A stretch of DNA of 5,260 nt from a virus (IMGVR_UViG_2778261360_000016:1-5260); one strand, 5' to 3'. Positions 2,053 to 5,260 are shown, numbered from the stretch's first letter. The notes: generated by a model from the sequence alone, not told the origin. Translations and numbers: made by a program.

Positions 2053-2420
2053 GCGAAATTAACTCTCAGGCACTGCGTGAAGCGGCAGAGCAGGCAATGC
2101 ATGACAACTGGGGATTTGACGCGGACCTTTTCCATGAGCTGGTAACACCATCGATTGTGCTGGCACTGCTGGATGAACGGGAAAGAAACCAGCAATACGT
2201 CAAACGCCGCGACAAGGAGAACGAGGATATTGCACTAACGGTAGGGAGGCTGCGCGTTGAGCTGGAAGGCAAACACAGGCGCATTACTGAGCTGACAATG
2301 TGGATTAAGCGACTGAGTTCCTCTCTCAAAAACGCAAAACCAGACAGCAAGTTGCCGGATGACGCAATGATCTGGCTAAATAATGAAGGGCTTACCAGTA
2401 TAGAGGATATTTTACGATGA
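2049..2420 (+). CDS. Ea22-like (ead/Ea22 family) N-terminal-domain protein, 123 aa, GTG start
   Basis: GTG at 2049 is preceded by GAGG at 2039-2042 with 6-nt spacing. The N-terminus MSEINSQALREAAEQAMHDNWGFDADLFHELVTPSIVLALLDERERNQQY resembles the conserved N-terminal region of lambda Ea22-family proteins as I recall it. The central region is charged and looks coiled-coil-like. Confidence 0.7.
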   Translation: MSEINSQALREAAEQAMHDNWGFDADLFHELVTPSIVLALLDERERNQQYVKRRDKENEDIALTVGRLRVELEGKHRRITELTMWIKRLSSSLKNAKPDSKLPDDAMIWLNNEGLTSIEDILR

Positions 2421-3064
2421 GCACTTTTACCATGGAATGGCTACAAAATACGATTACCAGTATTGAGTCAGCACGAGATGAAATGCCATTCGGACTCGAT
2501 AACGATCAAGCACACATGCTTACAGCATTTAAAATCGCTCTCGCCTCACTGGAACGCGAGCGGGTTCGCCACGAGCATGCCAAATGGTCTGACTCCACAT
2601 TTGGCTGCGTTGGCCCCATTGGTCCACTGAAACACCTCTCAAAAGAGGCTCTGGAAGCCGCAGCCGAACCTGACGATCTCAGCGAGTGGGCTGATATGCA
2701 GTTCCTGTTGTGGGATGCACAGCGCCGTGCCGGTATCAGTGATGCTGAAATTACCGCTGCTATGGAAAATAAATTGAAGATCAACATGGAGCGTCAGTGG
2801 CCTGAACCAAAAGATGGTGAGCCTCGTTTGCACATTAAAGAACCCGGCAACTCTCCGGTAACTCCGGATGGTTGGATAAGCTGTAGTGAGCTAATGCCAG
2901 ATGATGGTCAGCACGTAATTATTTTATGTGATGGCGCATTCGTTCTTTATGCGCAATATCGAGACGGAGAGTTTTTCGATATTGTCCGCAATGGTGATGA
3001 ATTTTTCGAAACACAGAGTCGCAATGTAACCGACTGGATGCAACTACCAGAACCTCCTCTTTGA
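2417..3064 (+). CDS. Two-domain prophage protein: MazG-like nucleotide pyrophosphohydrolase-type N-terminal domain (DUF550-like) plus C-terminal DUF551-like domain, 215 aa
   Basis: ATG at 2417 overlaps the upstream stop (ATGA). The N-terminal half has a MazG-like acidic helix pattern (EALEAAAEPDDLSEWADMQFLLWDAQRRAGISDAEI). The C-terminal WISCSELMPDDGQHVIILCDG...YAQYRDGEFF...WMQLPEPP matches the DUF551 signature common in enterobacterial prophage proteins. Domain names are from memory, not a search. Confidence 0.78.
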   Translation: MSTFTMEWLQNTITSIESARDEMPFGLDNDQAHMLTAFKIALASLERERVRHEHAKWSDSTFGCVGPIGPLKHLSKEALEAAAEPDDLSEWADMQFLLWDAQRRAGISDAEITAAMENKLKINMERQWPEPKDGEPRLHIKEPGNSPVTPDGWISCSELMPDDGQHVIILCDGAFVLYAQYRDGEFFDIVRNGDEFFETQSRNVTDWMQLPEPPL

Positions 3065-3160
3065 TAGCTAAGCTTATACATATCTTTTACATCAGCAATC
3101 TATTGTTAATCTCCAATCAATGTTACGTTGTCATCTCTCTCATGCTTTGGAGGTAGTGAT

Positions 3161-3340
3161 ATGTCTTGTCCAAAATGCGGTTCTGGAAATATTGCAAAAG
3201 AAAAAACAATGCGTGGATGGTCTGATGATTATGTGTGCTGCGATTGCGGATACAACGACTCTAAAGACGTATTTGGAGAGCGTGGTAAAAACGATTTTGT
3301 CAAAATTAATAAAGAACGCGAAGGCAACGAAAAAAGCTAA
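3161..3340 (+). CDS. Small zinc-ribbon protein, 59 aa (CPKCG...CCDCG), in an AT-rich island
   Basis: ATG at 3161 is preceded by GGAGG at 3149-3153 with 7-nt spacing. Two Cys pairs (CPKC and CCDC) are spaced like a zinc ribbon, and the C-terminus is Lys/Glu-rich. The ORF-track start at 3128 is a TTG with no ribosome-binding site, so the ATG is preferred. Confidence 0.55.
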   Translation: MSCPKCGSGNIAKEKTMRGWSDDYVCCDCGYNDSKDVFGERGKNDFVKINKEREGNEKS

Positions 3341-3405
3341 TTTATTTATTCATATATGAAAACAATGTAACCAATATTCGAATTGAAGAACTGAAAGAAC
3401 ACCAA

Positions 3406-3427
3406 GCCGCCTGATGGCGGTTTTTTT
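3406..3427 (+). terminator. Rho-independent terminator candidate downstream of the zinc-ribbon gene
   Basis: A GC-rich stem CCGCC (3407-3411) / GGCGG (3416-3420) with loop TGAT is followed by T7 at 3421-3427. The T-run is on the + strand, so it is oriented for + strand transcription. Confidence 0.6.
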
Positions 3428-3441
3428 ATTGGAGACAAGAA

Positions 3442-3786
3442 ATGTCAGATTTGGCTATGAAGGTTTTGAAATGGCAATCGACTGGCGATGTTGGCATCAG
3501 TAGCGCAACTCTTGCCTCAATCGCATGTGGACTGAAAAAGAATATCTATGGTCATCACTTCGGCGCTCCCCATGACGCAGCCGATTTCAGACGATGCGTT
3601 GCACTTGTTGAGCAGATTCCAGAAATCAGAGATTCATTCAACAAGGTTGCAAAGCGCGTTCCGGCATTCAAAGGAATCCTCAACGAATGGGATTCTCTCG
3701 TTGCTCTGTTGAAGTCTGAAATGAAGATACACGGAAACAAAGCACCAGAGACTTACAGAAGAATTAGCGAGTTACGCAAGGACTAA
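3442..3786 (+). CDS. Hypothetical protein, 114 aa, function unknown, in the lower-GC accessory region between the ea genes and xis
   Basis: The ATG at 3442 is preceded by GGAGA at 3431-3435 with 6-nt spacing and follows the terminator T-run within 15 nt. The ORF is clean, with a soluble, helical-looking composition. I do not recognise the sequence. Confidence 0.65.
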   Translation: MSDLAMKVLKWQSTGDVGISSATLASIACGLKKNIYGHHFGAPHDAADFRRCVALVEQIPEIRDSFNKVAKRVPAFKGILNEWDSLVALLKSEMKIHGNKAPETYRRISELRKD

Positions 3787-3875: not shown

Positions 3876-4223
3876 GTGGAAGAAGAAATCTTCACTCGTG
3901 AAGAGGCAGCATCGTATCTGAAGGTAGACAAAGGCACTATCACGCAGTGGATACGAAGTGGACGACTTCAGGCCGCAAAGATAAATCCAGATAAACCTAA
4001 AAGCCCATATCGCATTTGCAAGTCAGACTGCATTGCGGCGCTTAAGTCTGTGAGACACAATAGCGCGGTGAATGCGGTTGATGTGCAGGAGGTTAAAGCA
4101 TGTCAATCAAACTGCGCGGTGGCACATGGCACTGCGATTTCGTCGCGCCAGATGGATCAAGAGTTAGACGCTCTCTTGAAACATCGGACAAAAGGCAAGC
4201 GCAAGAACTTCACGATCGTCTGA
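3876..4223 (+). CDS. xis: Excisionase (Xis), HTH excisionase-family DNA-binding protein, probably P22-type, about 115 aa from GTG 3876
   Basis: The motif EEEIFTREEAASYLKVDKGTITQWIRSGRLQAAKI is typical of excisionase/MerR-like helix-turn-helix domains, and the gene lies immediately upstream of int. GTG at 3876 has GGAG at 3865-3868 with 7-nt spacing, whereas the in-frame ATG at 3804 (139 aa) has no ribosome-binding site. The 3' end overlaps int by 124 nt. Confidence 0.7.
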   Translation: MEEEIFTREEAASYLKVDKGTITQWIRSGRLQAAKINPDKPKSPYRICKSDCIAALKSVRHNSAVNAVDVQEVKACQSNCAVAHGTAISSRQMDQELDALLKHRTKGKRKNFTIV

Positions 4224-5260
4224 AAGCAGAGGCGTGGAGAGTAAAAAATCTCGGGGAATCGCCGAAAAAGCTATTCAAGGAAGCCTGCATACGGTGGCTG
4301 CGTGAGAAATCGGATAAGAAGTCCATTGATGATGACAAGAGCATTATATCGTTCTGGATGTTGCACTTCAGAGAAACCATTCTCTCTGACATAACAACAG
4401 AAAAAATAATGGAGGCGGTAGACGGGATGGAAAACCGCCGCCATCGCCTGAACTGGGAGATGAGCCGGGACAGGTGTTTGCGGCTTGGCAAGCCAGTGCC
4501 GGAGTATAAACCAAAGCTGGCAAGCAAAGGAACGAAGACGCGGCATCTGGCAATACTTCGCGCTATTCTCAATATGGCTGTTGAATGGGGATGGCTTGAC
4601 AGGGCGCCCAAAATATCAACACCACGCGTTAAGAATGGACGCATTAGATGGCTTACAGAAGAGGAATCGAAGCGCCTGTTTGCAGAAATAGCTCCTCATT
4701 TCTTCCCTGTTGTCATGTTTGCAATCACGACAGGCCTTCGCCGTTCCAACGTTACAGACCTTGAGTGGTCACAGGTCGATCTGGATAAGAAAATGGCATG
4801 GATGCCCCCTGATGAAACAAAAGCTGGCAATGCGATCGGAGTTCCTCTTAACGAAACCGCATGCCAGATATTAAGAAAACAGCAGGGACTCCATAAGAGA
4901 TGGGTATTTGTCCACACCAAACCTGCCTACCGAAGCGACGGAACAAAAACAGCAGCGGTAAGGAAGATGAGAACCGACAGCAACAAGGCATGGAAGGGAG
5001 CGTTAAAGCGGGCAGGCATTAGCAACTTCCGCTTCCATGACCTGAGGCATACCTGGGCAAGCTGGCTGGTTCAGTCCGGTGTCTCTCTTCTTGCACTTAA
5101 AGAGATGGGAGGATGGGAAACTCTCGAAATGGTTCAAAGATACGCCCACCTTTCAGCCGGGCATCTCACTGAGCACGCGAGCAAAATCGATGCGATTATA
5201 AATCGCAATGGCACAAATACGGCACAAGAGGAAAACGTGGTTTACTTAAATGTGAGATAA
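4100..5260 (+). CDS. int: Tyrosine-recombinase phage integrase (P22/Sf6-type Int), 386 aa
   Basis: AGGAGG at 4087-4092 lies 7 nt before the ATG at 4100. Catalytic signatures are present: TGLRRSN (Arg box), HDLRHTWASWLVQSG (H-x-x-R), GGWETLEMVQRYAHL (Tyr nucleophile). The N-terminus MSIKLRGGTWHCDFVAPDG...KRQAQELHDRLKAEAWRV resembles P22 Int as I recall it. The TAA at 5258-5260 is the last codon of the window. Confidence 0.95.
   Translation: MSIKLRGGTWHCDFVAPDGSRVRRSLETSDKRQAQELHDRLKAEAWRVKNLGESPKKLFKEACIRWLREKSDKKSIDDDKSIISFWMLHFRETILSDITTEKIMEAVDGMENRRHRLNWEMSRDRCLRLGKPVPEYKPKLASKGTKTRHLAILRAILNMAVEWGWLDRAPKISTPRVKNGRIRWLTEEESKRLFAEIAPHFFPVVMFAITTGLRRSNVTDLEWSQVDLDKKMAWMPPDETKAGNAIGVPLNETACQILRKQQGLHKRWVFVHTKPAYRSDGTKTAAVRKMRTDSNKAWKGALKRAGISNFRFHDLRHTWASWLVQSGVSLLALKEMGGWETLEMVQRYAHLSAGHLTEHASKIDAIINRNGTNTAQEENVVYLNVR

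Follow-up and report, generated by a model that had tools for sequence, protein, structure and literature searches.

The AT-rich eaG module of a lambdoid prophage: a small predicted zinc-ribbon gene in a variable slot ahead of a widely shared hairpin

Introduction

The best-described counterpart of the locus analysed here is found in Salmonella phage P22. The P22 records carry a 180-bp gene, eaG, whose product is entered as 'EaG(?)' or 'putative', and NCBI names the product 'Eag protein'. A literature search for 'eaG' and 'Eag protein' returned one gene-table entry, with the function given as 'Unknown', along with the unrelated T6SS Eag chaperones. The region that holds the gene is the 'exo-xis region' of the lambda literature, and the exo-xis genes are described as being transcribed from pL (PMC8614690; PMC4195576). 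A hairpin of this region was predicted as 't5 lambda' in Table 4 of PMC4195576. The P22 record L06296 annotates the same hairpin as t'I, 'inferred from identity' to the lambda t'I, and in BK000583 its opposite strand is annotated as terminating an antisense aI RNA, which is activated by C1 and starts within eaC. The P22 eaG gene and the t'I/t5 lambda hairpin are already on record, as is the mosaicism of the exo-xis region.

Two other small proteins of lambdoid phages invite comparison. In lambda, a small cysteine-rich early protein, Ea8.5, occupies the same variable slot as EaG; its fold is a hybrid of a homeodomain and a zinc finger. The Lar protein of the Rac prophage is, like EaG, a small zinc ribbon encoded in the early-left recombination region of a lambdoid prophage. 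Another known kind of accessory unit is the moron, defined for HK97 and HK022 as an insertion in lambdoid phages made up of a promoter, a gene and a terminator.

In the present work, a stretch of 5,260 nucleotides of viral DNA (IMGVR_UViG_2778261360_000016:1-5260), hereafter the window, was analysed. A sequence-only reading had pointed to an AT-rich island at about 3065-3440, with a small zinc-ribbon gene and its own terminator, and had likened it to an independently transcribed accessory cassette. Here, the gene, the hairpin and the slot are compared with their relatives in phages, prophages and complete E. coli genomes.

The window and its gene order

The window represents the early-left arm of a lambdoid prophage. 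In the direction of pL transcription, its features are as follows.

1-420: C-terminus of bet
417-1097: exo
Between exo and the DksA/TraR-type gene: homologues of lambda orf60a, orf63 and orf61
1831-2052: DksA/TraR-type zinc finger
2049-2420: Ead/Ea22-like gene
2417-3064, plus strand: EaA-like gene, DUF550 (dATP/dGTP pyrophosphohydrolase) and DUF551 (Pfam PF04447, 4.5e-42; PF04448, 1.5e-17)
3065-3160, plus strand: AT-rich 96-nt eaG leader
3161-3340, plus strand: eaG, the 59-aa zinc-ribbon ORF (PHROG 2945, P22 EaG homology)
3341-3366, plus strand: 26-nt spacer of GC 0.115, the right end of eaG-specific DNA
3367-3414, plus strand: 3' remnant of a lambda orf55-type gene, non-coding (within the 60/60 match to lambda)
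3404-3430, plus strand: predicted intrinsic terminator (t'I hairpin), weak on the minus strand
3431-3434, plus strand: Shine-Dalgarno GGAG serving the 114-aa gene
3442-3786, plus strand: 114-aa gene (PHROG 1229), the first of the next module, ahead of xis and int
3876-4223: xis (HTH excisionase)
4100-5260: int (tyrosine integrase)

The eaG gene is co-oriented with the bet-exo...xis-int operon. It follows a DUF551/EaA-type gene and precedes the t'I hairpin and the xis-int module, all in one orientation. None of the phage records covers 80% or more of the window, the closest being Stx1a_EH2115 (65% coverage, 97% identity); the window is thus a typical mosaic, and the surrounding genome is an E. 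coli lambda/Stx-phage-like mosaic. Rfam gave no match at E <= 1 to either strand of the whole window, and PADLOC returned Cas12 zinc-finger matches at noise level only. Two hairpins lie further upstream, at 1150-1190 and 1744-1781, the first of which is presumably the lambda tL3. They correspond to the predicted terminators t1 and t2 of lambda and phi24B, and the predicted promoter p1 of the same study overlaps t2, upstream of the DksA/TraR-type gene (PMC4195576).

Identity and reading frame of eaG

The AT-rich island represents the eaG module found in P22-like and lambdoid phages, and its gene is one already on record. From 3025 to 3448, which spans the eaA end, eaG, the terminator and the first eaC codons, the window is 96.5% identical to P22 at the DNA level. 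The protein shares 55 of its 59 residues with P22 EaG and matches PHROG 2945 over residues 1-58 (E = 5e-30). P22 has the same leader, the same end of the upstream DUF551-type gene and the same hairpin downstream. The two part after the terminator, where P22 has eaC and the window has the 114-aa ORF. The C1-activated promoter paI is annotated within eaC and is, therefore, absent from the window. The activator box of the cII/C1 type, TTGC-N6-TTGC, is no more frequent in the window than expected by chance and has no site near the island, so that a P22-like paI is not evident here.

The ORF starts with ATG, and its CPKC and CCDC motifs take up residues 3-6 and 26-29. A GGAGG Shine-Dalgarno is present at 3149-3153, seven nucleotides 5' of the ATG. 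Thus, the 59-aa ORF with GGAGG and CPKC...CCDC, which had been noticed from the sequence alone, lies at 3161-3340 as described.

An allele of eaG that is 81% identical to that of the window (P0017; L063 3001-3180) was seen on 201 contigs. The two alleles differ by 11 amino-acid changes and one synonymous change. Most of the amino-acid changes fall in the C-terminal tail, and a further one is C27S. Since one allele carries C27S, the zinc ligands are taken to be C3, C6, C26 and C29. The non-coding DNA on either side is more conserved than the coding sequence, with 6 of 96 nucleotides differing upstream and 3 of 89 downstream. A codon-level test of selection between the alleles was uninformative, as the 18 differences are evenly spread over the codon positions.

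Such a pattern raises the question of whether the 59-aa ORF is the real product at all. A 79-aa ORF on the plus strand (3120-3359) overlaps eaG and is open in the window, P22 and P0017 alleles, as is one minus-strand frame. Together with the excess of amino-acid over synonymous changes, the better-conserved flanks and the question mark in the original P22 label, this could mean that the 79-aa ORF is the gene, or that the island is non-coding. We regard this as extremely improbable. In homologues of 33-57% identity from Cronobacter, Yersinia, Salmonella and metagenomes, the four cysteines and the GW..Y core are invariant. The Shine-Dalgarno is strong and correctly spaced for the 59-aa frame, the 79-aa frame has none, and the predicted ribbon structure is confident over residues 1-40. 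Because relatives this distant keep the ribbon core, the coding frame is settled in favour of the 59-aa ORF, and the 79-aa ORF was rejected as a gene.

The EaG protein and its relatives

EaG is predicted to be a generic zinc ribbon with a disordered, charged tail. In the family alignment (A2), the invariant residues are C, P, C, S, K, G, W, Y, C, C and F, and these include C3, C6, C26 and C29. The core of the family can be written as CPxCGS-x4-K[ED]K-x2-[RG]GW[ST]GDYxC-x2-CG[YF], followed by a variable charged tail. When supplied with the alignment, AlphaFold2 models a three-stranded ribbon (strands 11-16, 19-26 and 32-34) at pLDDT 80-87 over residues 1-40, with the tail disordered; the single-sequence model was set aside (pLDDT 60.7). 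The four conserved cysteines, the matches to ribbon-family profiles and the three-stranded model all bear out the earlier zinc-ribbon call, with metal binding as a prediction. The molecule would be a single zinc ribbon having a conserved RGW(S/T)GDY loop and a disordered tail rich in lysine and glutamate. Its most likely role is that of a binding or adaptor protein towards a host or phage macromolecule, rather than that of an enzyme.

The family is small, with 13 representatives at E <= 1e-3 among 1.84 billion, and a profile search gathered 69 clusters from E. coli, Salmonella, Cronobacter, Enterobacter and Yersinia. Most of the 'divergent' homologues returned by the first protein search are frameshift variants running into the orf55 remnant, and as true relatives they were mostly rejected. 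Among genome contigs, the profile search found only one EaG relative, at 57% identity, on a 1115-bp contig of Kocuria sabuli (L161; NZ_JAVHZE010000050.1). This tiny contig of an actinobacterial assembly is probably contamination. A metagenomic protein of 380 aa (P0041) carries six tandem EaG-like CPxCGS...YxCxxC ribbons.

Comparison of the structure with PDB and BFVD by Foldseek gave nothing at E <= 1e-3; the top matches were ribosomal, TFIIB-type and ZifS ribbons, all at E >= 0.6. Similarly, PDB sequence searches with the single sequence and with the profile found generic ribbons only, at E >= 0.0056. The HMM search that had been suggested for the 59-aa protein identifies it through PHROG 2945, and in Pfam and NCBIfam it yields only sub-threshold generic ribbons (HVO_2753, TFIIB, IS1/IS1595 and Lar). 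With Ea8.5, which the sequence-only reading had judged dissimilar, BLASTP produced no alignment at E <= 100. EaG thus shares with Ea8.5 the slot, but no detectable sequence similarity, and it models as a plain three-stranded zinc ribbon, unlike Ea8.5.

One conceivable function is that of a Lar-like restriction-alleviation protein, an early zinc ribbon of the leftward operon that would shield incoming phage DNA from type I restriction. The Pfam family PF14354 (Lar_restr_allev) matches the protein of the window at E = 1.1e-4 and six of nine family members at E <= 0.01 (best 6.1e-5). Several close homologues carry precomputed PF14354 labels, and both the size and the operon position are comparable to those of Lar. 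However, the scores stay under both curated cutoffs, at 22.8 bits against a gathering cutoff of 28.6 for PF14354 and 14.5 against 39.6 for TIGR03655, and membership in Lar was rejected. The profile similarity is, in other words, weak, and the HVO_2753, TFIIB and IS1/IS1595 zinc-ribbon families score equal to or above Lar. The structure search is likewise populated by generic ribbons, with a Lar-family protein only at rank 11 (E = 0.25, TM 0.36). A Yersinia prophage (L078) has a true PF14354 gene in the same region, which fits the position; it also carries an EaG homologue, and the presence of both argues against redundancy. A Lar-like function is, on balance, quite unlikely.

The AT-rich island and its leader

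It had been remarked that the island is visibly AT-rich compared with its flanks, and the windowed composition agrees. The GC content is 0.359 over 3065-3440 and 0.483 over the window as a whole, and only 0.7% of 376-nt windows are that low, the minimum (0.356) starting at 3023. By part, it is 0.344 in the leader (3065-3160), 0.383 in the coding sequence and 0.115 in the 26 nt after the stop. Such low GC would reflect a foreign or cassette origin.

The promoter-like hexamer TTGATA noted earlier is indeed present at 3061-3066, where it overlaps the TGA stop of the upstream gene. The sequence-only reading could not pair a convincing -35 and -10, and neither could the scans. A consensus search from 2800 to 3700 found no sigma-70 site. 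With a weight matrix, the best score in the leader (7.64, for TTTACA-N15-TAATCT) equals the mean best score of shuffled leaders, 46% of which score as well as the real one. The leader holds a degenerate -10-like sequence, TGTTACGTT, at 3121-3129, and no credible sigma-70 promoter. The hexamer TACGTT, with TG before it, aligns with TATAAT-like hexamers in the leaders of distant relatives; it matches TATAAT at three of six positions and is without a -35 partner.

Across 77 eaG loci, 91 to 96 of the 96 leader nucleotides are identical. A leader block, ACATCTTTTACAT (3080-3092), is common to the window and a homologue in the nin region (L168, ~1430-1445), and partly to Cronobacter. It has been kept though the rest of the leaders diverged, and it is too distant from the hexamer found 36 nt before the start codon in these relatives to be its -35.

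The hairpin belongs to a shared 60-bp element

Downstream of eaG, the terminator with a GC stem and seven T's that had been described is present at 3404-3427. Its 8-bp stem (3404-3411/3416-3423) has five GC pairs and a TGAT loop, the T7 run occupies 3421-3427, and the predicted fold is of -13.4 kcal/mol (z = -2.4). It had also been called the terminator of the small gene itself. This part of the description did not stand.

The stretch 3367-3426 is identical at 60 of 60 positions to lambda (J02459, 29106-29165), and likewise to 933W, HK022, 434, Sf6 and many Stx phages. Homology to lambda and the other phages that do not carry eaG starts at 3367. In lambda, the counterpart consists of the last 48 nt of orf55, followed by the 3' stem arm and the start of the T run; lambda orf55 (L003, 581-748) overlaps the element match at 701-760. 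The remnant in the window comprises the last 15 orf55 codons (VTNIRIEELKEHQAA) and the TGA stop, which lies in the hairpin loop. In lambda, the hairpin thus ends an intact orf55 downstream of ea8.5, whereas the window retains 16 codons, stop included, as non-coding DNA after eaG. In the allele of L063, a CAA of the remnant frame has become TAA. Intact orf55-like genes end at the element in 12 loci (cluster U2). The position of the element is the same in lambda and in the window, directly upstream of the xis-int side.

The distribution of the element is far wider than that of eaG. A query holding the cassette matches 2487 of 5426 complete E. coli genomes, nearly all of them at query positions 303-376 only, that is, at the element; at least 80% of the eaG cassette is found in 271 of the 5426. 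The element is, therefore, about ten times more widespread than the gene. Its flanks were surveyed in 56 viral contigs with the exact hairpin core and six reference records of P22, L, lambda, Sf6 and HK140. Upstream of it stand at least 10 unrelated gene clusters (eaG in 23, intact orf55-like genes in 12, Ea8.5 in 5, Sf6 gp19-type zinc-finger genes in 5, and others), and downstream at least 7 (the 114-aa ORF in 38, Sf6 gp18-like genes in 8, P22 EaC in 3, lambda Xis and others). Most combinations of upstream and downstream genes occur around it.

Seen from eaG, the association is close: the exact hairpin is found 64-65 nt past the stop in 77 of 80 loci with eaG, and a one-base variant of it in two more. 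The gene that follows in these 80 loci is Sf6 gp18-like in 32, the 114-aa gene in 30, lambda Xis in 8, a MAAIH-type 71-aa ORF in 4 and EaC in 3. Seen from the other side, a terminator stands directly before the Shine-Dalgarno in 80 of 80 sampled copies of the 114-aa gene, with eaG upstream in 23 of the 80. Two unrelated hairpin types are found before this gene, the shared element and CTGAACTCGCTACGGCG(A/G)GTTTTGTTTT (for example in Stx2a_WGPS8). As all 80 of the 114-aa genes have a terminator and only 23 have eaG, the terminator is a property of the junction before the xis-int side and not of eaG. Judged by this distribution of sequences, it is a backbone junction element, present in roughly half of the complete E. 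coli genomes.

Among otherwise identical copies of the shared terminator before the 114-aa gene (L170-L249), the T run varies between T6, T7 and T8. Single-base stem variants, in which AAGCC has changed to AAACC, AATCC or AAGAC, are also seen.

A variable slot for small accessory genes

The boundaries of the module are well defined. In P22 and most contigs, the eaG-specific DNA starts at 3021-3034, within the last ~35-45 nt of the DUF551 gene, and ends at 3366. The end of the DUF551 gene (3021-3064) forms the left homology shoulder of the eaG module. In the viral contigs L010 and L022, ea8.5 and orf55 are framed on one side by the DUF551 3' end that is also present in the window (87% identity over 3021-3059) and on the other by the shared element with the 114-aa gene. 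The guess that the island sits in the slot where lambda carries ea8.5 is, therefore, right. In Stx2a_WGPS8, a 29-aa ORF replaces eaG between the same flanks.

Such comparisons indicate that the slot is an exchange site for small accessory genes, namely eaG, ea8.5 with orf55, the Sf6 gp19-type zinc-finger gene and others. Sf6 gene 19 (L004 886-1197; cluster U5) lies in the same slot and encodes a small cysteine-rich protein (CSLCGG...CLNC). At least three of the alternative cassettes (eaG, ea8.5 and Sf6 gp19-type) thus encode putative zinc-binding proteins.

Short conserved patches that flank interchangeable inserts would fit exchange by homologous or homeologous recombination. Recombination through these patches is suggested by the boundary pattern and by general work on lambdoid mosaics, for which Red-mediated recombination has been proposed (PMC2327257).

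Distant relatives and the question of autonomy

Distant eaG homologues occupy three positions. Those of Cronobacter and Yersinia lie in the exo-xis region, those of Salmonella in the late region directly ahead of terminase, and a third group in the nin region ahead of ninB. Every one of them has an upstream gap of 92-235 nt. Three lineages (Cronobacter, Salmonella-late and nin-type) have a TATAAT-like hexamer, matching at five or more of six positions, exactly 36 nt 5' of the ATG. The hexamers are TATCAT, TATAAT and TATTAT, and the last 60 leader bases are only 25-43% identical between these lineages. The coincidence was reproduced by 0.075% of shuffles (p about 7.5e-4); the lineages are homologous, so the shared position is not fully independent evidence. 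The Yersinia lineage has TATAAT at -56. In the Salmonella-late and Yersinia lineages, the gene is immediately followed by an unrelated terminator of that lineage's own. Taken together, these sequence features suggest that the ancestral eaG cassette was autonomous.

In the Cronobacter prophages (L071 2684-2745; also L069 and L165-L167), a TTGACA and a perfect LexA box (TACTGTATATAAATACAGT) directly follow the eaG homologue. The box is upstream of an 84-aa ORF, which looks like an SOS-controlled gene within the exo-xis region.

Like morons, eaG has a distinct low GC and non-coding spacers, separates genes that are direct neighbours in some relatives, and has relatives at several positions. In the composition of the insert (GC 0.36 against 0.48) and the alternative inserts found between conserved flanks, the locus agrees with such a unit. 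Unlike morons, it has no recognisable promoter here, and the terminator is a shared backbone element that follows at least 10 other upstream gene types and includes an orf55 3' end, instead of belonging to the inserted unit.

An autonomous eaG, transcribed from a weak or factor-dependent promoter in the leader, terminated at the hairpin and active in the repressed prophage to the benefit of the lysogen, would account for the low-GC island and for the conserved 96-nt leader that always accompanies the gene. The homologues inserted in the exo-xis, nin and late regions behind gaps of 92-235 nt, the hexamer at exactly -36 despite the diverged leaders, the TG and TACGTT of the window that align with it, and the separate terminators of two lineages also speak for such a unit. 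For the window itself, we nevertheless hold it to be unlikely, because its hexamer matches TATAAT at only half of the positions and lacks a -35 partner, and because the best promoter score is that of shuffled DNA. A consensus scan upstream of eaG in four lineages found no plus-strand promoter, the terminator is common to many other genes, and the homology of the lineages weakens the argument from position.

A broader version is also conceivable. EaG-family genes may be small mobile, moron-like cassettes, each with a -10 fixed at -36, a zinc-ribbon gene and often a terminator, that entered the lambdoid and P22-like phages of enterobacteria on separate occasions, in the exo-xis, nin and late regions. 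Such cassettes would be self-transcribed, possibly in the lysogen. The window allele would then keep a weak extended -10 (TGTTACGTT), and diversifying selection (11 non-synonymous changes against one synonymous) would act on a protein that modulates the host or its defences. This proposal is tentative, and we rate it as unlikely.

Discussion

The reading that we favour, and consider probable, is that eaG belongs to the antiterminated pL operon as a non-essential early accessory gene, placed in the variable slot at the distal exo-xis end and bounded by a shared junction terminator. The gene would be transcribed within the N/gp24-antiterminated pL transcript, which would pass the hairpin and continue into the 114-aa gene, xis and int. 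Unmodified transcripts, on the other hand, would be stopped by the hairpin from entering the xis-int module. Both the terminator function and the antitermination read-through are thus proposed from the sequence and from lambda and P22 biology. The conserved hairpin element and the DUF551 3' end would double as homology patches, at which Red/Erf-type recombination would swap the accessory cassettes (eaG, ea8.5 with orf55, and others).

Two counterpoints to the operon reading should be kept in mind. One is the leader, a conserved non-coding stretch of 96 nt where the genes of the operon are otherwise tightly packed. The other is the behaviour of the distant homologues, with three genome positions, a -36 hexamer in three lineages and terminators of their own in two.

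For the earlier picture of an independently transcribed cassette, the outcome is divided. The mosaic accessory cassette in the ea8.5 slot is upheld. The terminator of its own is not, since the hairpin is part of a 60-bp element that is identical in lambda, follows many unrelated genes and is about ten times commoner than eaG. Independent transcription is not upheld either, as the promoter scans were negative, eaG is co-oriented with the bet-exo...xis-int genes and the exo-xis region is described as pL-transcribed.

The finding matters little for discovery, and its useful outcomes are corrective. The terminator is not eaG's and should not count as evidence of the autonomy of the gene, and the slot is a defined exchange site. 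Should the family prove to carry a -10 of its own at -36, EaG would exemplify a very small moron that moves among three operons, and would be a candidate among the small-protein modulators of host and defence that are sought in phage accessory regions.
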